Part shown: piece after piece, positions 24,211-45,425 of the stretch
How the letters are laid out: the number at the start of each line of letters is the position of its first letter
Numbering within the stretch: the first letter of the stretch is position 1
Source of the DNA: an uncultured Planctomycetales bacterium
GTDB taxonomy: Bacteria > Omnitrophota > Gorgyraeia > Zapsychrales > JAHFFX01
Assembly (NCBI GenBank): GCA_964612665.1
Contig: CAZTCI010000004.1
Coordinates: 270,376 to 334,375 of the forward strand
Direction of reading: 5' to 3'
DNA length: 64,000 nucleotides
The notes under the pieces: generated by a model
The model's database searches: none
What the model was told of the DNA's origin: nothing
Seen by the model: the letters and a program-made list of their open reading frames with translations, nothing else
Made by a program: the position numbers and the translations under genes

Positions 24211-24324
24211 AGTATATGATGGATATACCATAAGCAAATTTCCCGACGAAAGGCCAATGTTTGACAATCTTACTCATGAATGTTATTCTTCAGTTATTTC
24301 AACTTGAAACGAGAGGAACTAATT

Positions 24325-24606
24325 ATGATTAAAATACATGACGATGTGACCATGGTTGGCATTTCTGAATTACAAATGCATCCTGAAAAAATTCTTCAAG
24401 AAATCAAGAAGCATAAAGTTATTATCGGAAAACGTAATAAACCGGTTGCTGTTTTGTTGAATATGAAAAAGTATCGTCAAATGGAGACTACCTTGGACCT
24501 CTTGGAGAATTTTGCCCTAGGTTATTTGGCGAAGGACAGAGAAGTCCGTACGAAGAAATCTTATGTTGACATCAAAGACGCTTTGAAAAAAATTAAACAT
24601 CAGTAA
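24325..24606 (+). CDS. Type II antitoxin, Phd/YefM family
   Basis: MIKIHDDVTMVGISELQMHPEKILQEI..KPVAVLLNMKKYRQMETTLDLLEN fits the Phd/YefM fold pattern. An ATG at 24325 with a GAGAGGA Shine-Dalgarno is preferred over the longer ORF-track start. Confidence 0.6.
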   Translation: MIKIHDDVTMVGISELQMHPEKILQEIKKHKVIIGKRNKPVAVLLNMKKYRQMETTLDLLENFALGYLAKDREVRTKKSYVDIKDALKKIKHQ

Positions 24607-24612
24607 CCATTC

Positions 24613-24915
24613 ATGTGGCAAATCAAAATAAACCCGCTAGTTCTTCTTGAAGATTTTAAAAATATCGATTTACCTCAACAAAGAAACATTCTTAGGACCA
24701 TCCACAAAAAATTATCTGTTAATCCTAAAGCTTATGGCAAGCCGCTGACCGGTGAATTTTCAGGTTACTGGCGTCTTCGTATTGGCGATTACAGAGTTGT
24801 TTACCGTATCCTCAATGACCAAGTTGTTGTGCTTGTTATTAAGGTTGGTATCCGCAAAGATGACAGAGTTTATCGGGAATTATTTTCTAGATTGCGTCGA
24901 TTGAGCCGTCCTTAA
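24613..24915 (+). CDS. Type II toxin, RelE/ParE family mRNA interferase
   Basis: WRLRIGDYRVVYRILNDQVVVLVIKVGIRKDDRVY is the RelE/ParE signature. Sits 6 nt downstream of the antitoxin. Confidence 0.7.
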   Translation: MWQIKINPLVLLEDFKNIDLPQQRNILRTIHKKLSVNPKAYGKPLTGEFSGYWRLRIGDYRVVYRILNDQVVVLVIKVGIRKDDRVYRELFSRLRRLSRP

Positions 24916-31509: not shown

Positions 31510-31583
31510 CGCGGGGTGGAGCAGGCTGGTAGCTCGTCAGGCTCATAACCTGAAGGCCGCAGGTTCAAATCCTGCCCCCGCAA
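31510..31583 (+). tRNA. tRNA-Met (CAT), initiator-like (C1-A72 mismatch; near-identical to E. coli tRNA-fMet)
   Basis: cgcggggtggagcaggctggtagctcgtcaggctcataacctgaaggccgcaggttcaaatcctgcccccgcaa. An inverted-repeat-rich promoter region lies upstream (ccgcgtaaaatgaaat ... atttcattttacgcgg). Confidence 0.85.
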
Positions 31584-31596
31584 CTCTAACAAACGA

Positions 31597-31639
31597 AAGC
31601 CAGTCAGTGAGTTACATCATTGGCTGGCTTTTTTGTTTT
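31597..31639 (+). terminator. Intrinsic terminator after tRNA-Met (agccagtcagtga...tcattggctggc followed by ttttttgtttt)
   Basis: Stem-loop plus U-run. A closely related motif recurs at 38111-38148. Confidence 0.6.
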
Positions 31640-31686
31640 GTACTAAAATGGCTGCATGCTAATGCGGTGCTAATGTTCGCGTCAGA

Positions 31687-32357
31687 TTATTTTAAGTTTT
31701 CCCAAAAAAGTCCATAACGGGAAAGCAATTTTTTTAACCGGTTCGCATCATTGATGTTTGTTCTGCGTTGTCTTGAAGCTGAGTAGAGAATCCGTCCGGC
31801 CTCGGATAGGCTTCTTGATTTGCGGCATATTTTAATCACTTCTGCTAATTCAACCTTTTCTATATGGTCCATTGCCTCAATTGAGGCAGTGCTTAAGATT
31901 TCTTCTAATAAACTTGAGTCGTTACTTTCTTGAGATTTTTTTCATAGATTAAGAAGTCGTTGGATTTCTTGTTCGACGATATCGACGTCAATTCTTCCAC
32001 CGGCGGCTAATGTTGCCATTCGCGTAATGGCAGCATTCAGGTCTCGGAAGTTCGCGGTCCACGCTACTTTTTCTGATTTGGCGAATTTTAAGAATTTTTC
32101 CTTTGCTTCTTTGTTAAAAGTAATATTGAGTCCGTGATCTTTGGCGAATTTGTCTAATTCATATTGTAAATTAGCCTCGATGTCTTCCCATCTTTCTTTA
32201 AGGGCCGGCAAATAAAACGTCCATAAATTTATTCTGGTATACAGGTCCTCTCTAAAATTACCTTTCTGAACTTCTAACCCAAGATCGCGATTAGTTCCCG
32301 CAATCAGTTGAAAATCACTTTTAATTTCTTTATCAGCTTCGATTAGAGCATTTAATC
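31687..32357 (-). pseudogene. Remnant of a sigma54-dependent (NtrC/RtcR-like) transcriptional activator: C-terminal AAA+ half and Fis-type HTH, frame-disrupted and N-terminally truncated
   Basis: Manual translation gives ..IAGTNRDLGLEVQKGNFREDLYTRINLWTFYLPALKERWEDI.. (the sigma54 activator AAA+ signature), bounded upstream by an in-frame TAA. A separate ORF at 31687-31872 carries the HTH tail (SEAGRILYSASRQRRTNINDANRLKKLLSRYGL). No Walker A or N-terminal domain was found. Confidence 0.5.
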
Positions 32358-32568
32358 GCTTCAGATTTCCGTGTTAACACTCCTGCTGACACCTGCCTGC
32401 CGACGGGCAGGAGGTAAGCTTAAGTAGGGCACAAGCGATAATAGCAAATGGGTTTATTCTTCGGAGAGAGACAGCAAAAAGTTAGCTGGTTATTTGAGTC
32501 AGAATTAAGTAGAATAAAAGAAGTTTTTATTTTATTAAAAATTACAATTGCTGAGTAACTTATAAGGA

Positions 32569-32608
32569 ATCCGTTAGGCTTCAAGTTGTGTCGGCTAGCG
32601 GATTTTTA
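32569..32608 (+). repeat. REP-like element, copy 3 / terminator-like hairpin (atccgttag...ctagcggat followed by tttttattttt), containing aggcttcaagttgtg
   Basis: Read from sequence. Shares aggcttcaa and caagttgt with the elements at 7667 and 10741. Confidence 0.4.
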
Positions 32609-32638
32609 TTTTTAGGTTATAAAATGGGGCCGATTTAA

Positions 32639-32965
32639 ATGCACGAAATGGCTTATAAAGTGAAAGCGGATTTTTTGAGAGTTTTGAGTCATCCTGTTCG
32701 TTTGAAATTAATTGAAGAACTTAAAACAGGCGAAAAAAGTGTGGGGCATCTTGTCGCCAAATTAAAGATGGGGCAATCGAATATTTCCCGTCATCTTTTG
32801 GCTTTACGCAATGCCGGAATATTATCGTCCCGCCAGGAAAAGACAGTTGTTTACTACGATATCGCTGACCACGATATTTTTCATGTTTTACGTCCTATCG
32901 CCGTCATGCTTCGCAAAAAGTTTAAAGAATCAGAAAAGGTGTTTAGGACTTTAGGCAAAGACTAA
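32639..32965 (+). CDS. ArsR/SmtB-family transcriptional regulator
   Basis: Winged-helix motif LSHPVRLKLIEELKTGEKSVGHLVAKLKMGQSNISRHLLALRNAGIL. Confidence 0.7.
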   Translation: MHEMAYKVKADFLRVLSHPVRLKLIEELKTGEKSVGHLVAKLKMGQSNISRHLLALRNAGILSSRQEKTVVYYDIADHDIFHVLRPIAVMLRKKFKESEKVFRTLGKD

Positions 32966-33101
32966 TCTTTTCATTCCCGCCACAGGATCCTCTTGTCTCT
33001 ATTTTGATCCCCAATATTTTTAGTGTTTATTCTTGACATGAGAATAATGTATATACTAATATGCAAATATTAGAATATTTAAATAAAATAAAGGAATATC
33101 T

Positions 33102-34445
33102 TTGCGGAATCTATTTTGCAATCCGGGGACCTATTTAGCTCTTTTTCTTTTAACTCCCACCACTTCATTTGCCGAGATTAACCACAAAGAATTTCTCTCC
33201 ACCGACTTCATCCAATCTTTTCAGAAACAAGAATACGAAAAAGCTATACAAGAAAGCGATGCACTTCTTAAAAAGTATCCCAATGATCCTCTTGTCCTGC
33301 GTTATCGGGCGCTTACTTTAGAAAAACTTCATCATCCTGATCAAGCCATAAATCTCTACCATGAAATTTTAGCGGCTCATCCTAACGATGAGCCGACACG
33401 TTTATTCTTAGGGTTGACTTATATAAGGGAAGGGGAAAATCACAAAGCCGCTGAAGAACTGCATCAGGTCGTTGAGCATAGCCACTTGCCAGAATACCGG
33501 CATTGGGCGCAGGAGCAATTAGACCGTTTGCATTCATACGAAATTTCCGTCGGCAAGTCTATCCATAAGAAAGCTTATTTTGTTGGGAAAACAGGAATTA
33601 TTTATGACAGCAATCCTTTGCTTATTCCCGATAATCAAAGTTTGTCGTCGACAGAAAAGAATCCTGCGGCGCTGTATGAATTTGAATTGAGCGCCGGATA
33701 TCCGTTGCGGTTGGAAAAAGATTTTCGTTTGGATGCTTTGTATATCGGCGAAACATATCAGCATAGTCATGGCGCTCAGAGTGTTGATTTCACATCTCAG
33801 GGCTTTGCTTTGGATGCTAAAAAACGAACCTTTGCTGGCAGGCGTCCATTTTTGTTGAGTGGCCGATATGATTTTCGCGCGAACTTTTTAAGAAGTGACC
33901 TGTTTTCGATCGTTAATCGGTTTTATGTCAGCGCGGACACATCTTTCTGGCACAAAACGCTCACCAATTTCTTTGCGCGTTTTGCTGTTTCCAATTACGG
34001 TCCCGATGGCGCTAATCCCGATCAATCCTCGCGTGATGGCATTCGCGAAGGCATTGGTGTAACGCAATATTTTTATACCAAAAATCGTAAAAGCTTTTTC
34101 TTCATCAAGGGCGAAGGTGATTTCAATCAAACCCGCGGAGAGAATTTTAATCGTGAAGGTGCGCTCGCCACTATCGGTCTTCATACACCATTTTTTTATA
34201 AAACTGATTTGGATGTGTCTAGTTCATTTAATTGGGGCGTTTATCCGGACTTTACATCGTTATCGTCATTGGATCCGAGCGAACGGCGTGATAAAGGCTG
34301 GGATGCTTACGTCGGCGTGACGCATCATTGGAAGCCAAGTCTTGCGACACGGGTTTTTTATCGTTTTATCAATTCGGATAATAGCAATAATTTATTGGAC
34401 AGTAGCCGGCATCTGGCTGGTTGGGAAGTCATCTTCTTATTTTAA
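33102..34445 (+). CDS. Outer-membrane protein with N-terminal TPR domain and C-terminal beta-barrel (Slam/DUF560-like or PgaA/BcsC-like architecture)
   Basis: Signal peptide ending SFA. TPR repeats over about 120 aa. C-terminal half has alternating-hydrophobic strands and the canonical beta-signal ...GWEVIFLF (terminal Phe, hydrophobics at -1, -3, -5, -7). Confidence 0.45.
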   Translation: MRNLFCNPGTYLALFLLTPTTSFAEINHKEFLSTDFIQSFQKQEYEKAIQESDALLKKYPNDPLVLRYRALTLEKLHHPDQAINLYHEILAAHPNDEPTRLFLGLTYIREGENHKAAEELHQVVEHSHLPEYRHWAQEQLDRLHSYEISVGKSIHKKAYFVGKTGIIYDSNPLLIPDNQSLSSTEKNPAALYEFELSAGYPLRLEKDFRLDALYIGETYQHSHGAQSVDFTSQGFALDAKKRTFAGRRPFLLSGRYDFRANFLRSDLFSIVNRFYVSADTSFWHKTLTNFFARFAVSNYGPDGANPDQSSRDGIREGIGVTQYFYTKNRKSFFFIKGEGDFNQTRGENFNREGALATIGLHTPFFYKTDLDVSSSFNWGVYPDFTSLSSLDPSERRDKGWDAYVGVTHHWKPSLATRVFYRFINSDNSNNLLDSSRHLAGWEVIFLF

Positions 34446-34446
34446 T

Positions 34447-37275
34447 ATGCCTAACAAAATAAAAAATATAGAAGCGATCATCTTTTGCGGGATTTTATTG
34501 TGTATGTTTCTTTCTGTTTCTTCGGTATCGGCTGAGGACAGGAATGTTGCGGTCGACCAGAAGATAGGCGGCATGGAACAAGGACGGCGGATTCAATCGC
34601 CAGGGAATTACAATAATAAGGGGATAACCTCTGGTGAACCAGGAAGTACAACAACACCGGCGCATGATATCCATACGCTTTCGCAAGAATCCCAAAAAGC
34701 GGAAAGCTCTCAAGGAAGGAATATTTCCAATGGTGGGAATCATGGATTTCTTTATGTTCAGGGGCAAGCGAGCAATTCTGCGGACAATCAAAATGGGACT
34801 AATCAAGCCAGCCGCGAACAAACAAATGGCCTGCCTGCCGGACAGGCAGGTTCAACAAGTGCCAATACAAGCCAATCCCCGACGGGACAAGAAAATAGTT
34901 CTCCCAATGTAGGGAGCAGTCAGTCTGGGACTGGGCAATCCAACGGATCGGCAACTGTTAATACTGGTGAAACGCCGACGGGACAAACTGGCTCAGCGCA
35001 TGTGAGTACGGGTGAAACGTCGAGTGGGCAGACAGGTGGATCGGTCAACGTAAATGCGGGACAAACGGGCGGATCATCTGAAGTCAATGTCCCCTCGACG
35101 GGAACTGAACAAACCAGTGGCTCTGTTGGAACTGGAACAGTCCAAACAACAACCGGGCAGATTACGAATCCTGTCAATACAGGATCTCCTGGTACTACAG
35201 CTCCGACAGAAACATCTCCGACGGGACAAATTGAGACCGGAGAAACTCAAACGGGAAGCGGGAATTCAGGAACGAACACGGAATCGTCGGGAACTTCGAA
35301 TAATCCGATCGTTAGTGTTGATGCCAATGTCAATCCGAATTCGGGAGCAGCTGATACGAGTGTTCATACCGATACCAGCGGCCAGTTGGAAGATCGACAA
35401 ATCATTGATGCTGGTGCGACAACCGGACAAACATCGACTCAAACAGAAACAGGCAGTGCGAGTGGAATTACTGGATCCGAAATGGTTCACCAAACTGATA
35501 TAACGATACAACCAGTTGCCCAAACTACACAACAATTTGGAACAACAACTCCCAACACAACGGAAACAAATGTAGGAGCCGGCAATGGTGGAATTATCGT
35601 CGGAGGAGAAACGTCTCCGACCGGCCAAGTCGGAATAGGAGAAACTCAAACGGGAAGCGGCACTTCGCCGACAACAACAGAATCATCGGAAAGTTCAAGT
35701 AATCCGATTGTAGGCGTTGATGTGAATGCCAATCCGAATACAGGAGAAGTTAGTACCGGCATTCGCACAGATACCAGCGGCCAACTGGAAGATCGACAGA
35801 TTATTGATGCAGGCGTTGCTACCGGGCAAACAGAATCAACAGGAACTCAAACAGGCAGTGCGTCACAAATTACCGGGTCGGAAACGATCCATCAAGCGGA
35901 TGTAACAACACAACCAGTTGCCGACGCTGCCGGTCAAACGGGAGACACGACAACAAATGTTGGAACGGGCAACGGCGGAGTTTTGGTTGGCGGAGAGACA
36001 TCGCCGACGGGACAAGTTGAAGCTGGAGAAACTCAAACAGGAAACGGCCCTTCGCAGACAACCACAGAGTCATCCGGAACTTCAAATAATCCCATTGTGG
36101 CTGTCGATGTAAATGCAAATCCGAATTCGGGAGCAGTTGATACTGGCGTTCATACGGATACGAGTGGTCAGTTGGAAGACAGGCAAATCATCGACGCTGG
36201 TGCAACGGGAGAACATACGGGGTCGACTGGAGTTCAAACCGGCAGTGCATCACAGATAACCGGATCCGAAACGGTTCACCAAACTGATCTAACGACACAA
36301 CCTGTTACCGAAGCCACTGGACAAACAGGAACAGGGGAAGTGACAACGAGTACCGGCAATGGTGGAATTCTCATCGGTGGAGAAACATCACCGACGGGAC
36401 AAGTGGGCACGCAAGAAAATATCGGAGGCAGTTCAAGGACAACGCAAGAATCTTCGTCGGGAACTTCTAACCCAATTGTTGATGTTGAAGCTGGTGTCGA
36501 TCAAAATTCAGGAATGCCTCATGCCGAAGTCACTCTTGACACCAGCGGTGAGCTTGAAGAAAGACAAATTCTTGACGCAGACTTAACAGGAGAAACGACG
36601 GGTTCGACGGGCGCGGAAATAGGCGGCGCGACCGATATTACAGATGCAGATCTCGTTGAAGAAGCAGATATAACAACAGAAGTAGTGGGTGGCACAATAG
36701 GTCAAACTGTCCCAGATCAGATCAGCGGTTCAACAAATGGCGGAACTAGTTCTGGTTCTCAAACGCATACCGAAGAATCTTCCAGTACTTCAAGTAATCC
36801 TATCGTTGATATTGGAACAAATATCAATCCCGAATCCGGCACAGCTGATGTCAACGTCGGTGTAGATACAAGCGGTGAACTTGAAGACAGACAAATTTTA
36901 CAATTGGATTTAGCCGCAGACGGCGTTGGTTCCGGAGTAGAAACAGGCAGCGCCTCAGGTATGACGGGATCAGAGACTGTTCATGATGCCAATGTCACAA
37001 CAACACATGTCGCGACGACAGAACAAACGGTTAGCAGAACTTCAGAAACTCAAACGGGAACGAGTGGGATTTCCTCCGAAACACAAACGAGTGGCACCGT
37101 CGAAAGTATAATTTCGGCTCCCGCGGATTTCGGTGCAGAAATCGACACGACCGGTCAGACGGCCGGTGGAGAAGCCGATGTCGGAATAGCGGCTGAGGTT
37201 GATGGTGTTGGTGAAGGTGCTGATGTTGCGAGCGATCCTGCCGACGGACTTTCTACAGGTGGTCCCGGTCTTTAG
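34447..37275 (+). CDS. Large secreted Ser/Thr/Gly/Gln-rich repetitive protein (about 942 aa) with about 5 tandem 125-130-aa modules
   Basis: Signal peptide MPNKIKNIEAIIFCGILLCMFLSVSSVSA (start at 34447 preferred over the ORF-track 34342, which overlaps the upstream gene). Repeat module: GETSPTGQ..GETQTGSG..SNNPIV.VD.N.NPNSG..DT.VHTDTSGQLEDRQIIDAGAT..QTGSASQITGSETVHQTD.TTQPV. Confidence 0.6.
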   Translation: MPNKIKNIEAIIFCGILLCMFLSVSSVSAEDRNVAVDQKIGGMEQGRRIQSPGNYNNKGITSGEPGSTTTPAHDIHTLSQESQKAESSQGRNISNGGNHGFLYVQGQASNSADNQNGTNQASREQTNGLPAGQAGSTSANTSQSPTGQENSSPNVGSSQSGTGQSNGSATVNTGETPTGQTGSAHVSTGETSSGQTGGSVNVNAGQTGGSSEVNVPSTGTEQTSGSVGTGTVQTTTGQITNPVNTGSPGTTAPTETSPTGQIETGETQTGSGNSGTNTESSGTSNNPIVSVDANVNPNSGAADTSVHTDTSGQLEDRQIIDAGATTGQTSTQTETGSASGITGSEMVHQTDITIQPVAQTTQQFGTTTPNTTETNVGAGNGGIIVGGETSPTGQVGIGETQTGSGTSPTTTESSESSSNPIVGVDVNANPNTGEVSTGIRTDTSGQLEDRQIIDAGVATGQTESTGTQTGSASQITGSETIHQADVTTQPVADAAGQTGDTTTNVGTGNGGVLVGGETSPTGQVEAGETQTGNGPSQTTTESSGTSNNPIVAVDVNANPNSGAVDTGVHTDTSGQLEDRQIIDAGATGEHTGSTGVQTGSASQITGSETVHQTDLTTQPVTEATGQTGTGEVTTSTGNGGILIGGETSPTGQVGTQENIGGSSRTTQESSSGTSNPIVDVEAGVDQNSGMPHAEVTLDTSGELEERQILDADLTGETTGSTGAEIGGATDITDADLVEEADITTEVVGGTIGQTVPDQISGSTNGGTSSGSQTHTEESSSTSSNPIVDIGTNINPESGTADVNVGVDTSGELEDRQILQLDLAADGVGSGVETGSASGMTGSETVHDANVTTTHVATTEQTVSRTSETQTGTSGISSETQTSGTVESIISAPADFGAEIDTTGQTAGGEADVGIAAEVDGVGEGADVASDPADGLSTGGPGL
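35200..36950 (+). repeat. Coding tandem repeat array (period about 330-390 bp, about 5 units) inside the Ser/Thr-rich protein gene
   Basis: DTSGQLEDRQIIDAG-encoding segments recur at about 35371, 35772, 36153, 36539 and 36867. Confidence 0.7.
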
Positions 37276-37362
37276 GAAATATCACCAATAGAATAAATTT
37301 TCGTGCTAGCACTGTGCTAGCAAAATAAGCCGCAACTAGGGTAAAAACGGTAAACCACCAAC

Positions 37363-37405
37363 GCTCATAACCTGAAGGCCGTTGGTTCAAATCCCACCCC
37401 CGCAA
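37363..37405 (+). repeat. Direct repeat of the 3' half of tRNA-Met (putative att remnant of a 5.8-kb island)
   Basis: gctcataacctgaaggccgttggttcaaatcccacccccgcaa versus tRNA-Met 31541-31583. The anticodon loop through the variable region is 19/19 identical, the T-loop 9/9 and the acceptor 3' end 7/7. The 5' half of the tRNA is absent. Confidence 0.65.
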
Positions 37406-37631
37406 CCTTAATAAAGCTGCCGATAGGCAGCCATCCAAGAAAAGTCCCGTATACCTCTTAAGAATATTTTAGAAAGTGCGGGGGGCAACCAATATAAAAC
37501 CCGATTTCTCGACGAGTAATCGGGTTTTATAGTCTGTTTCGATGAGGTATGTAATTGAATACCTGTCCCAGAAAATTCAGACCATTTCCTTGGGCAGTAT
37601 TGAGAATGAGACAACCTAAGAGGAGGCATCC

Positions 37632-38022
37632 ATGAAGAATTACTTATTCTTGATTATGTTATTGTTAGTTTTCTTGCCGATAAGAGCAGAAGCGGATTCC
37701 AGCATTGATGTTGATTAACAGGAAATGAAGTCGTCCTCGCTCATGATTTTCCCTATTTGAATACTAATGTTTATCAAGGACTTGGATTAGGACAATCGAT
37801 GGTCAGAACAGTCGAAATTATTCAGGTTTTGAGATTCCGTTTGAAACGGAATTAACACCTGGGAAGAAATATTGGATATGGGCAGAAGATCCGCAGTTCA
37901 GCGGCGTGACGTTTAATTACAATACCGCGTTTGTTGGTCATGTTGTCCCCGAACCTGCCACGTTGTTGCTTTTAGGTCCAGCTATCCTGGGGATGGCTGG
38001 GTTGAGAAGAAATAGGGGATGA
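37632..38022 (+). pseudogene. Decayed PEP-CTERM sorting-signal protein gene (signal peptide, body and PEP-CTERM tail in three different frames)
   Basis: Strong Shine-Dalgarno (AGGAGG) then an ATG at 37632 encoding the signal peptide MKNYLFLIMLLLVFLPIRAEA, then a stop at 37716. The 3' end in another frame encodes ..VGHVVPEPATLLLLGPAILGMAGLRRNRG*, the classic PEP-CTERM motif. Multiple stops lie between. Confidence 0.45.
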
Positions 38023-38110: not shown

Positions 38111-38148
38111 AGCCAGTCAGTGACTTTCGTCGTTGGCTGGTTTTTTTG
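38111..38148 (+). terminator. Terminator-like hairpin plus T-run (agccagtcagtga...ttggctgg then tttttttgtttt), paralog of the motif at 31597
   Basis: Read from sequence. Confidence 0.5.
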
Positions 38149-38192
38149 TTTTACTTTCCCTTTTACTTTTCTGAAATGATTTTATTGCATTA

Positions 38193-38597
38193 TTACTTCT
38201 TCAGACTAATCTTCCCATCCGCGCTGGAACTCAATTCAATCTCCTTATTCTGATTCGTGTGCACATTCAACAGCACAACGGAGTTCTCTTTAATTTCTAA
38301 AAGTTTATAATCTCCGAACGCTGCTCCGATTTCATAAATCATTCCATTAATCAACGCCAAAGCCTTGTTGTCTTGGTGCGTAATGCCTTGGAGCTTGACT
38401 GAGGCGTCGGCATTTGGGTTGGCTTTCATTTTTGCAACCATTTCTTTTTCCTTTTGGACTCTTTTCAAGGTCGCCATTTGGTTCTGTTTATAATTAAAGA
38501 GAAGGAAAACGGTAGTAAGCAGAAGCAATAAAATAACCGCTTGAATCTGAAATCTTCCGTCGGACAATAAAAAGGATAAATATTTTGAGTTTTTCAT
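38193..38597 (-). CDS. PilP/GspC-like pilus/secretion assembly protein (N-terminal TM plus HR-like beta domain)
   Basis: C-terminal SVKLQGITHQDNKALALINGMIYEIGAAFGDYKLLEIKENSVVLL fits the PilP/GspC HR-domain pattern. Last gene of the pilus operon. Confidence 0.4.
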   Translation of the reverse strand: MKNSKYLSFLLSDGRFQIQAVILLLLLTTVFLLFNYKQNQMATLKRVQKEKEMVAKMKANPNADASVKLQGITHQDNKALALINGMIYEIGAAFGDYKLLEIKENSVVLLNVHTNQNKEIELSSSADGKISLKK

Positions 38598-39532
38598 TTT
38601 TGGCCTTTCGTTAAACGTTTTGCGTATTCGTAATCCGATTTTGTATAAGAGTTCGCGATTTTCTGGGTTTGGGCTTTAAGTTGGGCGATATTGGCTGTCA
38701 GATAAATGCAAGTTAACATGACGATCAATAAGAGGCCTTGCATTGCTAACATAATTTTTTGCCGTTCTTGAGCTGAGATAGAGTGCCCTCGCATAAAATC
38801 GAGATTCAAAAAAGCTGGCAACGATTCCTGTGCCGGCGCATCGGGCATGGTTGTCAGGTCGCCGCCATTTTTCTTGATGTCTTCTTTCAACTGCTCAATC
38901 AGATCTCCTTTGATATTCCCCGTCGTGAAAAACTGTCCCCAATTTTTATCCGCGCTTTTGGCGGTCACGCTTCGTAAGGATTGAATGACCTCATCGCGGG
39001 CTTCTTTAAATCCTTCATAGCGGATCTCCCGCAAAAGTTCGCATTCACCGCCGCAGAAAATCGCCACATGCAGACGGTTATCTGAATCAAAATAAATCAC
39101 ACACCAACGTCCGGTTTGTTTTTCTTGCTGCTGTATAAATGTATCTATTTTCATCAATATCGCAGAAGTGACACGGGCTGGGGTGATTCCGGATTTGTGA
39201 GCCGCTTTAAGATATTCCTGTAAAACTGATTTTGGTATGCACATAAAAATCCCTTTAAGCTCGTCTTTGTCGTTTACCAAAACTTGATAATCTAACTCAA
39301 TCTCACTGGATGGTAAAGATAAAAGCCCTACCGCTTCAAACATTAACCTGGCCCGCAAATCTTTCAAACCAATCGTGCTTACATTAAAAGGATAGACCAG
39401 GCATTTTGGATCAGATAATGCCAGCGCAATCGGGTTTTTCGACGATAAATCGGCCAATGTGATTTCGTGTAATGACTGGCCTAAATCTAAAGGAGATGAT
39501 GCGGTTAGCGTTGATAAAGATGCGATAGTCAT
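38594..39532 (-). CDS. PilM/GspL-like assembly protein (cytoplasmic actin-like domain plus C-terminal TM)
   Basis: Position in the operon. A cytoplasmic domain of about 250 aa followed by the TM helix LLLIVMLTCIYLTANIA. Confidence 0.4.
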   Translation of the reverse strand: MTIASLSTLTASSPLDLGQSLHEITLADLSSKNPIALALSDPKCLVYPFNVSTIGLKDLRARLMFEAVGLLSLPSSEIELDYQVLVNDKDELKGIFMCIPKSVLQEYLKAAHKSGITPARVTSAILMKIDTFIQQQEKQTGRWCVIYFDSDNRLHVAIFCGGECELLREIRYEGFKEARDEVIQSLRSVTAKSADKNWGQFFTTGNIKGDLIEQLKEDIKKNGGDLTTMPDAPAQESLPAFLNLDFMRGHSISAQERQKIMLAMQGLLLIVMLTCIYLTANIAQLKAQTQKIANSYTKSDYEYAKRLTKGQK

Positions 39533-39536
39533 ATTT

Positions 39537-40763
39537 TTAAAGCTCCTGCCACTTGCGTGTGTTTGAATTGATTGTCCCTCCTAAAACCTGGTCATAATGG
39601 ATTTGACCATTTTGAAGAAGGGTTACAGTTTTTCCGACGACAGCGCCGTAATATCCATTGTTGTTACTAATTGTGACGCCCGTGCCAGGAGCGTAAACCG
39701 CGCCGTAAAAACTGCCGTTGTTGGTGATTTGAACGCCGTTGTTACCGGTATAGGTGCTGAAAATTTGAAACTTGGATGGGGTCCCGCCGTTATTGACGCT
39801 TCCGTTGTTACTTAAATTGATGGGCCCGTCGGTATAGATCGTTACACTGGCGCCGGCATTTAAAACAAATAAAAAATTATTCCCCGTTGAGACCGCTGAT
39901 GTTGTGCTGGTTAAATAAAGATTAACAGTGCCATTGAACGTAACGGTTTTGTTATTACTCAAACTAATGGCCGTATATTTGTAATTTCCGGCGGCGAGTG
40001 TTGTATTATTGGTAATGCTGCCGCTGTTTGAAAGACTGGTTAAATTTGATGGAACACTGACCGAGGGTAAAGTAATGTTGTTCGTATTGGTCGTTGATCC
40101 ATTGACTGGTGTATTCCCGACGCTGACGGTGCCTCCCGCGCCGGTGCTGACATCACCATTAACATGAGCATTGTTATCAATTGTAATGGCGTTCGCCGTT
40201 GTTCCGTCTGTACCGACGTCGCCGTTCGTTTGAATATTGGCGCCGCCGTAGGCACCGCTGTTTGAATCATAACTATTGATGAGCGTATTGTTGTTTAAGG
40301 TAATTGAATTTTGAGCAAAGGCTGCATACTTAAAAAGTGAACCGCTGTCCAATTGGATCGTGCGCGAAACTTTGTTCGCTGCCGTGCGGCTTGGGTACCA
40401 GCCTTTGGCCACGACGATCATGTTGCCGTCATCAAATGAAATATCGTAATCGCCATAGACGGTTGAAGCATCGAACTTTAATTGAGTGTTGAGAACTTTG
40501 TTCCCGCCGCCGCAATTAAGACAGCTGGTGCAATGCGTTGTTGTTCCTTCTTGAAATAAAGCCGCGCAGCTATTGTGATTGTATTCCCATAATGTTTTTT
40601 GAATGCCAGCCTCGGCGAGCCAAAAAGCCCTGTTATAAAGGACCTCTTTTTCGGCGCGTTCCTTTTGTACCATCGACAAGTACATCGATCCCAATCCTAA
40701 GAGCGTGAAGGTCAAGATAAACATTAATGTGATGACGAGAATAGATCCGCGTTCATTTCTCAT
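39537..40763 (-). CDS. Large minor pseudopilin (GspK/PilX-like) with Asn/Thr/Ser-rich beta-rich C-terminal region
   Basis: N-terminal hydrophobic prepilin-like segment MRNERGSILVITLMFILTFTLLGLG. 408 aa. Operon context. Confidence 0.45.
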   Translation of the reverse strand: MRNERGSILVITLMFILTFTLLGLGSMYLSMVQKERAEKEVLYNRAFWLAEAGIQKTLWEYNHNSCAALFQEGTTTHCTSCLNCGGGNKVLNTQLKFDASTVYGDYDISFDDGNMIVVAKGWYPSRTAANKVSRTIQLDSGSLFKYAAFAQNSITLNNNTLINSYDSNSGAYGGANIQTNGDVGTDGTTANAITIDNNAHVNGDVSTGAGGTVSVGNTPVNGSTTNTNNITLPSVSVPSNLTSLSNSGSITNNTTLAAGNYKYTAISLSNNKTVTFNGTVNLYLTSTTSAVSTGNNFLFVLNAGASVTIYTDGPINLSNNGSVNNGGTPSKFQIFSTYTGNNGVQITNNGSFYGAVYAPGTGVTISNNNGYYGAVVGKTVTLLQNGQIHYDQVLGGTINSNTRKWQEL

Positions 40764-41239
40764 GGATTTCTCCTGCGTACGGTTGTGCCTTCCACAAAAT
40801 TAATATTGTCTTTTGTCCCGGATATTTCAATCTTGACGGAATTGCTGGTTACTCCCGGAGAGGGGAATGTTAACGTAATCGTGCCAGGCTGCGGCACCGA
40901 TAAAATGGTTTGGCGTTGAACACCGTTGTCATACACTAAATCGACTGTTGAGGCGTTCGTTTGGTAAAGGCCGAAAATAGCGGCATCAATCAAAAAGTGT
41001 TTGCCGCTGATCCAAGGCGAAGGCTGATTGGTCAAAGTCAGAGTCTTCGCGACGCGGACCTTGTTTTGTAATAATTTAAATGCGTAAGAAAGATCATTAT
41101 AAATTTGCTGTTGGCTGTTTAATTTTTTATATGAACTGTTGCCGATCGTCGAGAGTGTTCCTATCGTCAAAATCAAAATAGACGCGATCATGATCGCGAG
41201 CAGAAATTCAATTAATGAGTGGCCATGCGTATTTTTCAT
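40760..41239 (-). CDS. Minor pseudopilin (prepilin-type N-terminal methylation domain)
   Basis: GHSLIEFLLAIMIASILIL class III signal-like N-terminus. Confidence 0.55.
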   Translation of the reverse strand: MKNTHGHSLIEFLLAIMIASILILTIGTLSTIGNSSYKKLNSQQQIYNDLSYAFKLLQNKVRVAKTLTLTNQPSPWISGKHFLIDAAIFGLYQTNASTVDLVYDNGVQRQTILSVPQPGTITLTFPSPGVTSNSVKIEISGTKDNINFVEGTTVRRRNP

Positions 41240-41631
41240 GGGGCTATAAAGGTTGCTAAATCAATTTCCTGATTTTGTTTGCCGGGTTCGGCCCAAGTAA
41301 ATTTCATTTCTACTAATTTTAGGGAGCCCGCTCCCGATTGATCGGTTACCCGTCGCTGTTTTTGAACAATAAAGTCAGAGCTTCCGAAGTAAATATTCTG
41401 GGCCGTTTCCCAGCTTCCCGAGGCCGGGTTCGGCAAACTGGCATAGCCATCGACTCTCATTTGTTCTATTTGCTGTGTCCCTAATTCCATGGCGATTTTT
41501 TTATGCATGTTTAACGCCATGACCTCTTGAGGATGACAATAAAATCCAATACTTCCCGCCAGGACCATAGTCAAAAGGACAATTGAAACCAAAACTTCAA
41601 CTAAGGTATAACCTTTGAAATTTTTTCTCAT
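41236..41631 (-). CDS. Minor pseudopilin (prepilin-type N-terminal methylation domain)
   Basis: KGYTLVEVLVSIVLLTMVLAG N-terminus. Confidence 0.55.
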   Translation of the reverse strand: MRKNFKGYTLVEVLVSIVLLTMVLAGSIGFYCHPQEVMALNMHKKIAMELGTQQIEQMRVDGYASLPNPASGSWETAQNIYFGSSDFIVQKQRRVTDQSGAGSLKLVEMKFTWAEPGKQNQEIDLATFIAP

Positions 41632-41654
41632 GATGAATACCCGAGATATGCAAA

Positions 41655-41739
41655 TTGTGTCATTGCGAGGAGTGCTTTTTGCGGCGAAGCCATCGAAGAG
41701 ATCGCTTCGCTAAAAAAGCGCACGCTCGCAATGACACAA
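41655..41739 (-). promoter_or_regulatory. Long imperfect hairpin just downstream of the major pilin gene (outer 15-bp perfect arms ttgtgtcattgcgag / ctcgcaatgacacaa, inner gcgaagc/gcttcgc); probable attenuating terminator
   Basis: Read from sequence. An internal U-run (gcgcttttttagcg) appears on the transcribed strand. Confidence 0.55.
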
Positions 41740-41756
41740 AATTGCACGAGCGTTTA

Positions 41757-42353
41757 TTAGTAAGCGCTCCAGTTCGTAGCCGTTCCGCAGTTTGCGTAGC
41801 AAACAAAAATACGGCCGCTGTTATCCATTTCTAATTCATAACCAGCAATTTCATCTGCATGGACTGCGCAGCTGGTATCTGTATTCGCAGCGCATTTGTA
41901 GCTGTTATCACCCTTCATACTGATTAAAAATCCGACAGGAGCTGGATTCGTGAACAGCTGTGAGCGGGTGTTGGCGTTGGTTGGCGCCGGAGCTTCGACA
42001 TAAAATGAAGCGTTGGAGAAATATTGAGACACGCCGACATTGACATCGACACCGGACGGATCAGGTGTTGGAACACCCGTCGCTGCCACAACACTTGAGG
42101 GTAATGGTTTTTGGATATTTCCGGCGGTATTTGAGAGGTTTGTGTCCTGAGCAACATCAAAGAACGTGTTGTGATTCACGTTATAGTCACGTTCGGCCTG
42201 GCGGACTAAACCGGCCGTGGCCACTGCTTCTGACATTTTTGATTTCTTGGTGTTGGCCAAATAGATCGGTGTGGCGACCGCTGCCAAAATGGCGACGATG
42301 ATCAACACGACCAATAATTCGACCATGGTAAAACCTTGCTTGTTGTTTAACAT
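41757..42353 (-). CDS. Major type IV pilin / pseudopilin
   Basis: Class III prepilin leader MLNNKQGFTMVELLVVLIIVAILAAVATP (G-F/T-MVE cleavage/methylation motif). 198 aa. Strong AAGGAGA Shine-Dalgarno. Followed by the long hairpin. Confidence 0.65.
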   Translation of the reverse strand: MLNNKQGFTMVELLVVLIIVAILAAVATPIYLANTKKSKMSEAVATAGLVRQAERDYNVNHNTFFDVAQDTNLSNTAGNIQKPLPSSVVAATGVPTPDPSGVDVNVGVSQYFSNASFYVEAPAPTNANTRSQLFTNPAPVGFLISMKGDNSYKCAANTDTSCAVHADEIAGYELEMDNSGRIFVCYANCGTATNWSAY

Positions 42354-42518
42354 TGCTGTTTCTCCTTGTTGTTTGTTTTTCTTGTTGCTTGCTGTTTATT
42401 TATACTGATGTCCATCAAATGATGTGATTTCAGTGCTTATTATTAACGGCGCTTTTTTTTCAGTGAAGTGTTCAACTCAAAGAATTAAAAAGACTAGCTC
42501 CCCCAAAGGAGCGTCACT

Positions 42519-43727
42519 TCACCTCAAAGCTCCGGAAATTTTAAAAATTGGCAGATACAACGCCAAAACTACAACCAATACAATCCCGCCGATAAAAATA
42601 ATCAGCGCGGGTTCCAACAAAACTGTTAAGCGGCTTAATGTATTATCAAGTTCATCATCATAATAGTCGGCGGTGCGTTTGAGCATCTCAGAGACCTTGC
42701 CGGTTTTTTCTCCGACGGCAACCATTTTTTTAACCATGCCTGAGAAAATTTTCTGCCCACGGATTTCTGAGGTCAAATCTGAACCGGCCACGACCCGTTG
42801 GCGTACATTCATAATTGCTTCGGCAAGAGGGCGATGATTGACGACCTGGGCGGTAATTTCGAGCGACGTGGATAAACCTACGCTCCCTTCGATTAGGACA
42901 CTCAATGTCCGGCAGAAACTTGAAATGCAACCTTTATAAATGACATTTTTACCGACGATGGGAATTTTGAATTTGGCATAGTCAACAGCATGGCGGAATT
43001 TAGGATTCTTTAGCGCAATCCAAAATGCGAAGAAAGCCGCCACGATTCCTAAAAGAACAATAGGGAACGCATGGATCATTGTTTCGCTTATACCGACCAC
43101 AATCCTTGTTAAAAGCGGTAATTGTCCTCCAGCGCTTTCAAACATGCTTTTAAATTTCGGAATCAAAAATAGAACAATGATAAGCACCACAGCAATGGCA
43201 AAACCAATGACGAATAACGGATAACGAAGGGCAGTGACAACTTTTTCTTTCATCCGTTCGGAATTTTCTATATATCTAGCCAGCTCGTTTGTTGTCCTGT
43301 CCAGGCGGCCGGTCGCTTCTCCCGATTTGATGATTGCGGTGTAGGTTTTTGGAAAAATCCTTGGGTATTTTAGAAGTGTCGTCGAGAAATCAGCCCCGCC
43401 GCGGATGTCTTTGGCGATTGAGAGGATGACCGTTTGAAAATATTTATTTTCCACATCTTCGGCAATTGTTTCCAAAGCATCTGTCAAAAGTAATCCCGAA
43501 GCCAAGGTTGCTGCCAGCTGGCGCGTGAAAACAACCAACTCCTTGCTTTTAACGCGGCCTGCCGTCAAAAAGCCTTTAGGCAATTGTTCTTTGTTTTGAA
43601 TGGCTTTGATTTTGATGGGCAGTAGCCCTTCTTTACTTAGACGAAAGACAACACTACTGACGTCATCAGCGTGGATTGTTCCAGTTATGTTGCGTCCATC
43701 TTTTTGGGCCGTGTATTTGAATATCAT
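42519..43727 (-). CDS. Type IV pilus / T2SS platform protein (GspF/PilC family)
   Basis: Two T2SSF domains and 3 TM segments. About 400 aa. Confidence 0.85.
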   Translation of the reverse strand: MIFKYTAQKDGRNITGTIHADDVSSVVFRLSKEGLLPIKIKAIQNKEQLPKGFLTAGRVKSKELVVFTRQLAATLASGLLLTDALETIAEDVENKYFQTVILSIAKDIRGGADFSTTLLKYPRIFPKTYTAIIKSGEATGRLDRTTNELARYIENSERMKEKVVTALRYPLFVIGFAIAVVLIIVLFLIPKFKSMFESAGGQLPLLTRIVVGISETMIHAFPIVLLGIVAAFFAFWIALKNPKFRHAVDYAKFKIPIVGKNVIYKGCISSFCRTLSVLIEGSVGLSTSLEITAQVVNHRPLAEAIMNVRQRVVAGSDLTSEIRGQKIFSGMVKKMVAVGEKTGKVSEMLKRTADYYDDELDNTLSRLTVLLEPALIIFIGGIVLVVVLALYLPIFKISGALR

Positions 43728-43736
43728 AGGCGTTCC

Positions 43737-45425
43737 TTAAAATTCTATGGTTTGTTGAGTCACTCTTAAAAGTTCTTCGGCTGTTGTGATGCCTTCTTTA
43801 AGTTTTTCAATTCCGGCTTCACGCAGGGTTTTCATCCCGCCTTTTTTGGCGAGAGCTAAGACTTCGTCAGCTGAGCTTCGTTGTAAAATTAATTGGCGGA
43901 TGGAATCATCTGGAATTAAAAGCTCATAAATAGCGACGCGGCCTTTATAACCACTGTTGAAACATTTTGAACATCCTGAACCGCGGGAAAAAGTTTTGAT
44001 TTGTCCGTCGAGCGCTAATTTTTCGAGGACATCGCGCGAAGGACGATAAGTTTGCTGGCAGTCGGGACAAATCGTGCGGATTAAACGCTGGGCCACGACG
44101 CACAAAAGTGAAGAAGTGATTAAATAGGGTTCGACTCCCATATTGGCCAAACGTACAGCGGCGCCGCAGGCATCGTTCGTATGAAGTGTTGTAAAAACCA
44201 AGTGGCCGGTTAAGGCGGCGTGAGTGGCGATTTCGGCGGTTTCGCGGTCACGGATTTCACCGACCATGATGACATCGGGATCTTGCCGGAGAATCGAACG
44301 TAATCCGCGGGCGAAATCAAAACCAATTTGAGTGTTCACTTGAGATTGTTGAATGAAAGGCAATCGATATTCGACGGGATCTTCTAAGGTAATAATATTT
44401 TTTTCATCGGATTTGATGGCGTTAAGCGCTGTATACAAAGTGGTCGTCTTTCCGCTTCCCGTCGGGCCAGTGACCAAGATCATGCCGTAAGAAGAAAGAA
44501 TGAGGCTGTTAATTTTCTGTAAGTCGCAAGCCGAAAAACCCAAAGCATCTAAGCCAAGCAAAGGATGCGACGTGTCCAAAAGGCGCATGACAATGCTTTC
44601 GCCATAGATCGTCGGAAAACAAGAGGTCCGGATGTCAATTTCTTTGCGGCCGATATTTATTTTGAAACGGCCGTCCTGGGGCAATCGCCGTTCAGCAATG
44701 TCGAGTCCGGCCATGATCTTAATGCGGGCCGTGATGGCCGAGAGCATCTCTTTGGGCGGTGGATCGATTGGATGTAAAACGCCGTCGATCCGCAGCCGCA
44801 ATTCGACGCGTTCTTGTTTAGGCTGGATATGAATGTCGCTCGCTGATTTCGTCATCGCCTCCACAATCAGATCGCGGACATATTGGACGACTGGCTGGTC
44901 GTCGGCTTCAAAAATCTTTTCTTCCTGGACTACAGCGGCTGGCTGTTCGGTGCGCGTCTCTGAATCGATAAAATCCTCGACGTGCTTTTTTAAACGCGGC
45001 AGGTGCTGGTAACAATATTCAATGGCTTCGATGATTTCATCTTCGTTGGCGACGACGTATTGGATTTTAAATCCAGTTCTGAGGCGAAGTGTATCGATAG
45101 CTAACAGGTCAAGCGGATCAAACATCGCGACCGTCAGCGTTTTATCTTTAAGATCAATAGGAAGAGTGCTAAACCGGTGAGCCAGTTCCCGGGGAATCGC
45201 TGCAATGACATCGTGTTTAATGTCTTTATAAATGTCTTTAAGGGGGATATAAGGAATATGAAAATATTTGGCAAGAAAGGGAGCCATCTTTTGCGGCGTA
45301 ATGTATCCCATTTTCAAAAGAATATCGCCGAGACGGTCGTGAGTCCGTTCCTGCTCGGTTAAAGCAATCTTTAATTCTTGGGCCGTAATGAGTCCTTCAC
45401 GCGTCAAAGATTCGCCGATTCTCAT
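43737..45425 (-). CDS. Type IV pilus / T2SS assembly ATPase (GspE/PilB/MshE family) with tandem MshEN-like N-terminal motifs
   Basis: Walker A GPTGSGKTT, Asp box, His box and the tetracysteine CPDC..C..C. The N-terminus has two RxGxxLxxxGxI..xxL repeats (RIGESLTREGLITAQELKIAL; RLGDILLKMGYITPQKMAPFL) resembling the c-di-GMP-binding MshEN domain. Confidence 0.85.
   Translation of the reverse strand: MRIGESLTREGLITAQELKIALTEQERTHDRLGDILLKMGYITPQKMAPFLAKYFHIPYIPLKDIYKDIKHDVIAAIPRELAHRFSTLPIDLKDKTLTVAMFDPLDLLAIDTLRLRTGFKIQYVVANEDEIIEAIEYCYQHLPRLKKHVEDFIDSETRTEQPAAVVQEEKIFEADDQPVVQYVRDLIVEAMTKSASDIHIQPKQERVELRLRIDGVLHPIDPPPKEMLSAITARIKIMAGLDIAERRLPQDGRFKINIGRKEIDIRTSCFPTIYGESIVMRLLDTSHPLLGLDALGFSACDLQKINSLILSSYGMILVTGPTGSGKTTTLYTALNAIKSDEKNIITLEDPVEYRLPFIQQSQVNTQIGFDFARGLRSILRQDPDVIMVGEIRDRETAEIATHAALTGHLVFTTLHTNDACGAAVRLANMGVEPYLITSSLLCVVAQRLIRTICPDCQQTYRPSRDVLEKLALDGQIKTFSRGSGCSKCFNSGYKGRVAIYELLIPDDSIRQLILQRSSADEVLALAKKGGMKTLREAGIEKLKEGITTAEELLRVTQQTIEF

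Follow-up and report, generated by a model that had tools for sequence, protein, structure and literature searches.

Elements that integrate into tRNA genes with a crossover in the anticodon loop—like mycobacteriophage L5 and SSV1—carry the tRNA 3′ half in their attP, within an identity block of ~43–46 bp. A classification of tRNA-integrating elements was reportedly given by Williams in 2002. The formation of islands at tRNA genes and the loss of their integrase are textbook mechanisms, and an integrase-less tRNA island is a known, fairly ordinary kind of genomic island. Cis-mobilizable elements (CIMEs), as defined in PMC6323972, are bounded by attL and attR, miss integration and transfer genes, and apparently derive from deletions; tandem accretion and the ICESt1-related elements of Streptococcus thermophilus, which use the 3′ end of fda, are reviewed in PMC5704250. 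Islands of Dehalococcoides integrate at the single-copy ssrA (tmRNA) gene (PMC3146451). With respect to cargo, the closest described systems are Slam or type XI secretion systems (T11SS), whose DUF560 outer-membrane proteins are encoded adjacent to a cargo gene (PMC8406197, PMC5449769) and which were so far described in Proteobacteria.

Here, we analyze a 64-kb stretch of DNA—hereafter the window—from the Omnitrophota, an uncultured phylum whose mobile elements are barely described. Very probably, the segment 31542–37362 represents a genomic island that was inserted into the initiator tRNA-Met gene through site-specific recombination of the tyrosine-integrase type and that is now decaying, being fixed or at most trans-mobilisable in a CIME-like manner; as an integrase-less tRNA island, it is well supported. 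With the Dehalococcoides islands, it shares a single-copy essential small-RNA target, an environmental lineage of the uncultivated type, and its discovery by comparative genomics, whereas target gene and cargo are different. Table 1 collects the features of the locus; L followed by a number denotes a locus used for comparison.

Table 1. Features of the island and of its borders in the window.
Feature	Position	Strand	Basis
Intact initiator-type tRNA-Met (CAT)	31510–31584	+	ARAGORN; Rfam RF00005 (end 31584/31583)
Direct-repeat copy 1: anticodon loop to tRNA 3′ end plus 9 nt	31541–31593	+	Repeat search; pairwise alignment
Terminator hairpin 3′ of the tRNA (P′ side)	31595–31639	+	Top terminator-like site in scan; repeat search
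Tandem heptads ATGCTAA-N4-GTGCTAA, candidate P′ arm-type site	31656–31673	+	Pattern scan; 114 nt from core
RtcR (sigma-54 RNA-repair activator) pseudogene	31687–32360	-	Translation; NCBIfam NF038308; Pfam Sigma54_activat, AAA_lid_14
Deletion scar / arsR upstream region	32361–32638	.	blastn
ArsR/SmtB-family HTH regulator	32639–32965	+	Pfam HTH_5 E 3.7e-12; NCBIfam NF033788 75.9 bits vs cutoff 55
Outer-membrane protein: N-terminal TPR domain and 14-stranded β-barrel, Slam/T11SS-like architecture	33102–34445	+	
942-aa secreted S/T/G/Q-rich acidic protein, ~130-aa repeats	34447–37275	+	ORF; signal peptide; repeat search
Conserved P arm with tandem heptads GTGCTAG-N4-GTGCTAG (37303–37320)	37294–37362	+	Homology to L157, L090, L096, L111; heptad scan
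Direct-repeat copy 2: non-functional, displaced 3′ half of tRNA-fMet (ends at 37406) and 9 nt beyond	37363–37415	+	Repeat search; alignment
Small PEP-CTERM protein pseudogene, two frameshifts	37632–38022	+	Three-frame translation; TIGR02595
Second copy of the tRNA-fMet terminator hairpin	38111–38152	+	Repeat search; alignment; terminator scan

Both ARAGORN and Rfam call a single tRNA-Met(CAT) at the left border, the latter at 63 bits (RF00005, gathering score 29). It bears the C1:A72 mismatch, a feature of initiator tRNAs, and lies 3′ of eno–ftsB, which is the place of tRNA-fMet in other Omnitrophota as well. An earlier note on this DNA had described a copy of the tRNA 3′ half 5.8 kb downstream that ends at 37405. 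This copy is real, but it spans 44 nt (37363–37406), 40 of which are identical to the tRNA-Met; the identical runs of 19, 11, and 10 nt, separated by two mismatches each, exceed the blocks of 19, 9, and 7 nt given there. Including the 9 nt beyond the tRNA end, the repeats reach 53 nt at 87% identity. The 19-mer of the repeat and its T-arm pattern both occur exactly twice in the 64 kb, where shuffles expect 0.00–0.01 occurrences. The tRNA 5′ half is absent from the downstream copy, and neither ARAGORN nor Rfam recognizes it as a tRNA. All four differences between the copies reside on two T-stem base pairs—a compensatory change from C-G to T-A at 50:64 and a change from A-T to T-C at 51:63—a placement with P ~7e-5 under random substitutions. 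Since only paired positions of the T-stem differ, the two copies originate from different functional alleles.

This layout is similar to that of L5/SSV1-type elements with respect to the identity block of 44–46 nt that begins in the anticodon loop and reaches the tRNA 3′ end, the restored tRNA at one end, and candidate arm repeats inside both ends. It differs from them by the lack of an integrase, by a cargo of surface proteins instead of phage genes, and by a repeat that reaches on to the terminator, interrupted by 695 nt. The compensatory T-stem change shows that the second copy once belonged to a functional tRNA, which would also fit an origin without any mobile element: former tandem tRNA-fMet genes with their terminators, the second of which lost its 5′ half to unrelated indels that also filled the resulting gap. 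Such an origin would agree with the host-like composition of the segment and with the duplication of both tRNA 3′ half and terminator, 99 nt in total. We nevertheless regard it as highly improbable, as the independent loci L161, L157, L090, L096, and L088—and L126 in its tRNA-His—share a break at the 5′ edge of the anticodon loop, and the same arm sequence precedes the fragment in genomes with different left neighbors. Moreover, near-identity between L090 and L096 is limited to the part right of the core, and two complete tRNA-fMet genes are present in no relative.

The island reading itself—an attL and an attR bracketing the segment, as the earlier note had proposed—gains support from the occupancy of this site among relatives, the nearest of which bear enolases of ~77–78% identity. 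L161 (enolase 78% identical) harbors a related 4730-bp island at the same eno–ftsB–tRNA-fMet site. It is flanked by exact 46-nt repeats, each beginning at CTCATAA, and carries heptads, described below, inside both ends. In L164, L011, L012, and L013, the site is unoccupied: tRNA-fMet is followed by at least 9.5 kb in which no 3′-half copy, heptads, or module were found. Hence, the repeat and its cargo do not accompany this tRNA in all relatives; their presence in all of them had been named in the earlier note as the observation that would favor coincidence or an ancient fixed duplication. The predicted empty site is thus seen in relatives, but not in truly isogenic form for the source organism: every Logan contig of this strain matches the window at 100% identity. 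A switch at the core is displayed by the near-isogenic pair L090/L096, whose right flanks are 96–100% identical starting exactly at the core, whereas to its left identity is ~60–69% and gene content differs. In L157, P arm, core with 3′ half, terminator, and heptads are contiguous, which is an attP-like arrangement or a tandem junction. The copy in L088 resides at a non-tRNA site with repeats of only 19 nt. In this lineage, the initiator tRNA gene thereby emerges as a hotspot of recombination at which synteny is interrupted.

In the window, L161, L157, L090, and L096, the repeat boundary lies at CTCATAA in the anticodon loop, which would place the crossover core there and make the tRNA-Met attL with a host-derived 5′ half. 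The attP of the element may have brought a replacement tRNA 3′ half together with its terminator (P′ side), and with the 3′ half supplied in this way the essential tRNA would have stayed intact at attL. The original 3′ half of the host would then have moved 5.8 kb downstream to attR, where decay seems to have begun.

Around both repeats, a candidate for the arm-site pattern that the earlier note had suggested looking for is present: tandem heptads lie just inside both ends. Tandem heptads of the form RTGCTAR-N4-GTGCTAR occur just twice in the 64-kb window, one pair inside each island end (0.06 pairs expected; single heptads total 14). The P′ heptads are 114 nt away from the core in the window, 113 nt in L161, and 110 nt in L157. 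It is because of this core spacing, conserved across loci, that we consider the heptads candidate arm sites, to which an integrase would bind. The window copy still has a core and a candidate arm at either end, with degenerate P′ heptads (ATGCTAATG/GTGCTAATG vs GTGCTAGCA) and a P arm that is ~70–80 nt shorter than in L161, L157, and L090; its heptad-to-core distance is 61 nt compared with 128–142 nt in relatives. The heptads might instead be operators for an island-borne regulator, either ArsR or the AbiEi antitoxin. This is conceivable, though rather unlikely. While TGCTAGCA is a perfect palindrome as typical of dimeric HTH operators, one copy in the window, L090, L161, and L096 is found 3′ of the last island gene, adjoining attR, which is not a promoter position. 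In L111, an mscL-like start codon follows ~70 nt downstream of the motif, and the P′ copy lies upstream of AbiEi or DUF6088 genes in L157 and L161; yet heptads are present without arsR in L161, L157, and L096, and the fixed distance of ~112 nt to the core despite unrelated terminators in between suggests a recombination geometry. Taken as arm sites, the heptads complete a clean att architecture for mobile islands of Omnitrophota, validated by comparison between loci and consisting of a core with P and P′ arms at conserved spacing.

No integrase or excisionase is found in the segment, in agreement with the earlier note: the Pfam annotation of 19.5–46 kb contains no integrase domain, and tblastn with the integrase of L126 detects no homologue anywhere in the 64-kb window. 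L126 bears a tRNA-His-linked 10.5-kb island with a 54%-identical barrel and its partner, bracketed by identical 41-nt tRNA-His 5′-half repeats that end in the anticodon loop; this island carries AbiE, Replic_Relax, and a tyrosine integrase (PF00589, E 2e-35). Replic_Relax genes are typical of mobilisable islands. An integrase-bearing element with a tRNA-fMet core was not found, and the tRNA-fMet-linked copies in the window, L161, L157, and L088 are without integrase, as is that in L096 in its visible part.

Beside attL, only the C-terminal ~216 aa of RtcR are left, with the 5′ part of the gene deleted and one in-frame TGA. The match to NF038308 covers positions 312–527 of 530 (E 1.6e-82) with 278 bits against a cutoff of 650; below this full-length cutoff and with an internal stop, it does not represent a full-length RtcR of CARF, AAA+, and HTH. 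The sigma54-activator remnant of the earlier note is therefore genuine, but it is 5′-truncated with a nonsense codon and not frame-disrupted. For the adjoining 32361–32638, blastn returns no homologue in any fetched locus, and homology to L088 begins at 32634. A deletion has cut the RtcR gene beside attL, the side where the integrase would be expected, and may have removed the integrase of the island. Lack of integrase and excisionase together with the RtcR-truncating deletion thus point to a decaying island, fixed or at most trans-mobilisable.

Like the CIMEs, the island keeps attL and attR, is devoid of integration and transfer genes, and apparently arose through deletion. Further parallels to the CIMEs are the junctions of relatives that are compatible with tandem accretion (L157, L126) and the existence of integrase-bearing cousins. 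Unlike the CIMEs and ICESt1-related elements with their fda target, the island resides in Omnitrophota and uses the initiator tRNA gene; no helper ICE or IME was identified for the window island, whose att arms are partly degenerate and whose mobilisation is putative. The CIME concept, being established (PMC6323972, PMC5704250), also accommodates an active integrase-less satellite—a hitchhiker whose excision and integration depend in trans on an integrase from another place in the genome or from a helper element. That none of these tRNA-fMet-linked copies bears an integrase, yet arms and spacing are conserved, would be accounted for by such a satellite, and so would the perfect 46-nt repeat of L161, the recent exchange in L090/L096, and the resemblance of L157 to a tandem-accretion junction. 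For the window copy, however, we consider it unlikely: its P′ heptads are degenerate and its P arm is shortened relative to L161, L157, and L090, mismatches affect 4 of 44 positions of the repeats, pseudogenes lie within the island, and no helper integrase was found in the 64 kb. In its broadest form, the idea is similarly doubtful: integrase-less, att-conserved satellites targeting the initiator tRNA of Omnitrophota, moved by an unlinked GTGCTAR-recognising integrase, would shuttle an undescribed secretion pair with a distant relation to Slam. If true, this pair would diversify the cell surface of ultra-small, possibly host-dependent bacteria.

The remaining content of the decaying island is as the earlier note had described it: an ArsR regulator, 90% identical in amino acids to its L088 counterpart, a TPR/β-barrel outer-membrane protein, and a 942-aa repetitive secreted protein. 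The gene of the latter bears three to five repeat copies at a spacing of 381–402 nt, and the protein has no Pfam or NCBIfam match. The pairing of barrel gene and repetitive partner is kept in dozens of loci, with partner proteins sharing an N-terminal GGMEEGSR-type and a C-terminal DPADGL motif. The island is a member of a family circulating among Omnitrophota with a two-gene surface module—TPR and 14-strand barrel plus repetitive acidic secreted partner—as its usual cargo, which in the window is preceded by the ArsR-type regulator. As horizontally exchanged cargo, the conserved module bears on surface variation in these nanobacteria. Integration into a tRNA gene with a 3′-half repeat is a hallmark of temperate phages too, and a degraded prophage could leave the same borders. 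We consider this most improbable, as the segment bears no phage structural or replication genes, barrel profile and arm sequences are without match in IMG/VR viral contigs, and the integrase-bearing relative L126 has Replic_Relax. By tetranucleotide composition and GC, the segment is not clearly marked as foreign, a point against an island: the repeat gene alone is a tetranucleotide outlier, and the rest shows a GC content of 38–41% compared with 43.8% for the window.

The TPR and barrel protein is remotely linked to Slam/T11SS. Both combine an N-terminal TPR domain of ~130–140 aa with a 14-stranded barrel, and both have the gene of a Sec-dependent cargo directly downstream; the barrel protein may export the neighboring secreted protein. 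A weak match to TPR_Slam is present, whereas PF04575 (DUF560) is matched neither by the full protein nor, at E<=10, by the barrel alone; five of 33 distant relatives reach this profile, with a best E of 1e-6. Different from Slam/T11SS are the host phylum outside Proteobacteria and the partner, which is acidic, repetitive, and of low complexity, has short conserved motifs at both termini, and is neither a lipoprotein nor a hemophilin-type cargo with a C-terminal barrel domain. The C terminus of this conserved adjacent partner is an acidic low-complexity motif.

Beyond the right border, two features absent from the earlier note were observed. One is a small PEP-CTERM protein pseudogene, located past attR in host DNA with copy 2 to its left and the second terminator to its right, whose reconstructed product scores 21.6 bits against a cutoff of 16 for TIGR02595. 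The other is the terminator repeat itself, with 37 of 42 positions identical between 31598–31639 and 38111–38152. The second terminator lies 695 nt past copy 2, and a simple attP × attB event does not alone account for it. The same type of terminator follows 3′ of the tRNA fragment in L090 and L096.

The island begins at a tRNA-Met(CAT) gene, one of three tRNAs called by ARAGORN in the window. Rfam confirms it with 63 bits and returns nothing else at E<=1 over 28-42 kb. The gene bears the initiator signature—C1 opposite A72—and lies directly 3' of the enolase and FtsB/DivIC genes, an order (eno-ftsB-tRNA-fMet) also present in nine other Omnitrophota genomes, which identifies the organism as a member of Candidatus Omnitrophota. 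As the earlier note had claimed, its 3' part is repeated ~5.8 kb downstream: the copy runs from the last 5' anticodon-stem base to the 3' end and matches at 40 of 44 positions: identical blocks of 19, 11, and 10 nt are separated by two mismatches each time. Similarity continues for 9 bases past the tRNA end (53 nt at 87%), and each half of the repeat pattern occurs exactly twice in the 64 kb, with 0.00-0.01 expected. The copy is without the tRNA 5' half, and neither ARAGORN nor Rfam calls a tRNA there. All four differences fall on T-stem positions 50, 51, 63, and 64, turning C50-G64 into T-A and A51-T63 into T-C; the probability that four random substitutions hit two complete T-stem pairs is ~7e-5. 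Hence, the copy descends from a different, once-functional allele rather than from a drifted local duplicate.

Features of the island and its borders, in window coordinates
Feature	Coordinates	Strand	Basis or remark
tRNA-Met(CAT), initiator	31510-31584		ARAGORN, Rfam
Terminator, strong	31595-31639	+	terminator scan
Candidate P' heptad pair	31656-31673	+	114 nt right of core
RtcR remnant	31687-32360	minus	last ~216 residues of sigma-54 RNA-repair activator
Stretch without homologue, 278 nt	between RtcR remnant and ArsR gene		blastn against all fetched loci
ArsR/SmtB regulator	32639-32965	+	Pfam, NCBIfam
Outer-membrane protein, 447 aa (barrel protein)	33102-34445	+	
Secreted repeat protein, 942 aa (partner)	34447-37275	+	ORF, internal repeats
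Candidate P heptad pair	37303-37320	+	61 nt left of second core
Copy of tRNA 3' part	37363-37406		40/44 to the tRNA
Small PEP-CTERM sorting-signal gene	37632-38022		two frameshifts
Second terminator copy	38111-38152		37/42 identical to the first

Exact-protein look-ups with the enolase, a 312-aa pilus protein, and ArsR gave no isogenic empty site, as every contig returned was 100% identical to the window; Logan contigs carrying proteins of this species are likewise all identical to it. The pilus protein has a single homologue (40% identity) among 5.8 billion proteins, and is hence useless as a synteny anchor for the right flank. An enolase search of GTDB species representatives gave relatives at <=70% identity, whose regions downstream of tRNA-fMet all differ. 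The comparison rests on the contexts of the many homologues of the barrel protein, and these are decisive for site-specific integration.

In L161/L162, the genome of a relative which shares the left-flank synteny (enolase 78% identical to that of the window), eno-ftsB-tRNA-fMet is followed by a 4730-bp island with remnants of an IS630 transposase and of AbiEi, a barrel homologue (65%) and a repeat-protein partner, an ORF of 81 aa, and MscS. At the far end of this island, the tRNA 3' part recurs without mismatch over 46 nt, starting precisely at the anticodon-loop core CTCATAA. A small ORF beside P' (the arm right of the attL core) in L161 was considered as a homologue of the RtcR HTH remnant and rejected, being an IS630-type transposase fragment. 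L164 (enolase 77%, FtsB 80%) is an unoccupied site: here, and in the more distant L011-L013, at least 9.5 kb downstream of tRNA-fMet hold neither a 3'-half copy nor the module. The right flanks of L090 and L096 are 96-100% identical over ~8 kb, and this stretch starts precisely at a decayed fragment of tRNA-fMet. Directly left of the fragment, identity drops to about 60-69% and the genes are not the same—hence, two near-isogenic genomes differ in the island variant that occupies a single att site. The bracketed island, the unoccupied sites, and this switch bear out the attL/attR reading of the earlier note. A conserved arm (CGTGCTAGCACTGTGCTAGCAAAATAAGC..., about 60-140 nt) stands before the fragment in the window, L090, L096, L157, and L161, regardless of the DNA further left. 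L157 has this arm joined without a break to the core and its complete 3' half, a terminator, and a second heptad pair, which looks like an attP or a junction between two tandem islands.

The arm-site search found heptad pairs of the pattern RTGCTAR-N4-GTGCTAR at the two positions in the table and nowhere else in the window. The expectation with one mismatch allowed is 0.06, an optimistic value as the pattern was derived from these same sites; single heptads number only 14 in 64 kb. The core-to-P' distance of 114 nt is closely kept in L161 (113) and L157 (110 nt), despite unrelated intervening terminators, and the heptads are absent from the unoccupied L164. These independent loci lend support to the pairs as candidate arm sites, which would be bound by an integrase. 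The heptads could instead be operators, as the palindromic TGCTAGCA might suggest; however, their occurrence does not follow that of arsR, and the last island gene is always followed by one copy. As arm sites, the P' heptads of the window are degenerate, and its P arm (left of the attR core) falls short of that in relatives by about 70-80 nt, both of which fit with decay.

Within the island, the RtcR remnant carries one in-frame TGA and lacks its N-terminal part. The claimed absence of an integrase or excisionase holds in the precomputed Pfam annotation for about 12 kb to each side of the island, and tblastn with a related integrase found no match in the whole window. Composition (GC, skew, tetranucleotide) is uninformative, since the internally repetitive gene is the only tetranucleotide outlier and the remaining segment is just slightly poorer in GC (38-41% versus 43.8%). 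The left flank is otherwise made up of housekeeping genes but includes a Phd/YefM antitoxin and ParE toxin pair at 24280-24915; the syntenic region of L161 lacks this pair. On the right, 38193-45625 (minus) holds a type IV pilus/T2SS-like operon with T2SSE, T2SSF, N_methyl pilins, and a PilX/DUF7305 protein, headed by a 67-aa HTH_17 gene of the excisionase-family fold; the 312-aa pilus protein belongs to this operon.

A related island with an integrase is found in L126 (5690-16278). This complete 10.5-kb island lies between identical 41-nt tRNA-His 5'-half repeats that end in the anticodon loop and are adjoined by GTGCTAA heptads. It encodes a tyrosine integrase (PF00589, E 2e-35), a 54% barrel homologue with its partner, AbiEi/AbiEii-WYL, TerB_N, NmrA/DUF2867, and Replic_Relax. 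Neither repeat lies within an intact tRNA, which suggests that the island belongs to a tandem array. Further integrase homologues adjoin the barrel gene in L137 and lie in its vicinity in L119. These tRNA-His repeats were the sole match in a search for repeats of other tRNAs; no 3'-half repeats of tRNA-Arg, -Ser, -His, -Thr, or -Asn were found upstream of barrel homologues.

The same module, with an AbiE toxin–antitoxin pair and ArsR, is also present in L088 (8218-12605), flanked by 19-nt repeats of the tRNA-fMet anticodon arm (17/19 identical) at the 3' end of an MGDG-synthase gene without a tRNA—it may be a secondary-site insertion. Divergence from the window is uneven here: the arsR DNA (window 32634-32853) is 91% identical to L088 9719-9936, the adjacent barrel gene only 76%. 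More distant barrel homologues (L102, L105, L107, L108, L133, L142, L155) often follow other tRNA genes (Arg-ACG, Ser-GGA, His, Thr) in the same orientation at a distance of 0.2-1.4 kb; a search of these loci gave no 3'-half repeats. Long direct repeats that are not tRNA-derived (114, 98, and 56 nt, 90-94% identity) flank the modules of L115, L129/L132, and L123, which hints at further insertion sites. L101/L144 and L100/L159 bear two barrel and partner modules per contig; hence, a genome can hold more than one copy of the module. Viral contigs gave no match to the heptad patterns, the arm patterns, or the barrel protein.

At its borders, the island is bracketed by the repeat of the tRNA 3' part that the earlier note described, but that account missed a second repeat: the terminator hairpin next to the tRNA recurs 695 nt past the displaced tRNA fragment, with the PEP-CTERM gene between attR and this second copy. 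A single attP x attB event leaves this duplication unexplained. The same terminator type stands 45 nt after the tRNA fragment on the host side of L090/L096, so we suspect that the terminator in the P' arm of the element was captured from a related host. With such a capture, the PEP-CTERM gene of this host would lie between the tRNA and the host's own terminator.

The most likely history comprises four steps. An element attP, consisting of the P arm, the anticodon-loop core, and P' (the tRNA 3' remainder, terminator, and heptads), would have recombined with the tRNA-fMet gene; the tRNA would have been kept intact at attL; the host 3' half would have been displaced to attR, where it has since gained one pair-breaking change; and a later deletion—the same one that truncated RtcR—would have removed the integrase along with anything else near attL. 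The repeats, their boundaries, the site polymorphism, and the lack of an integrase are direct results; transfer direction and deletion history are what we infer here. The reading as an integrase-less, tRNA-bracketed island was essentially right and now stands on comparative evidence. Cis-mobilizable elements (CIMEs) are defined by kept attL and attR with integration and transfer genes gone (PMC6323972, PMC5704250), and the island matches this definition; at most, it would be mobilisable in trans. This kind of element is already well known, and the moderate added interest lies in the att architecture seen in Omnitrophota and in a Slam-like surface module that is mobile.

For the barrel protein, evidence on the Slam relation is mixed. 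It shares the architecture of Slam/T11SS outer-membrane proteins (PMC8406197) and has a transitive sequence link: among 33 distant full-length relatives gathered by profile search, TPR_Slam is matched by 21 and PF04575 by five. Its own TPR_Slam match is below threshold, PF04575 does not match even with the barrel alone at E 10, and PDB searches gave generic 14-strand porins only and no Slam structure. Hence, it is not a demonstrable Slam/T11SS member. The partner gene is kept downstream of the barrel gene across dozens of loci, and this conserved adjacency leads us to predict that the barrel exports the partner. The partner bears a signal peptide, an N-terminal motif DR..VD.AIGGMEEGSR, a variable, repetitive, S/T/G-rich middle, and an acidic C-terminal motif EADV...DPADGL, and matches no Pfam or NCBIfam family. 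Tandem Repeats Finder reported nothing in its gene because the repeat copies are too divergent; they did emerge by another repeat search. A second signal-peptide-bearing, S/T/G-rich, low-complexity ORF at 63194-64000, running off the window end, resembles the partner in composition.
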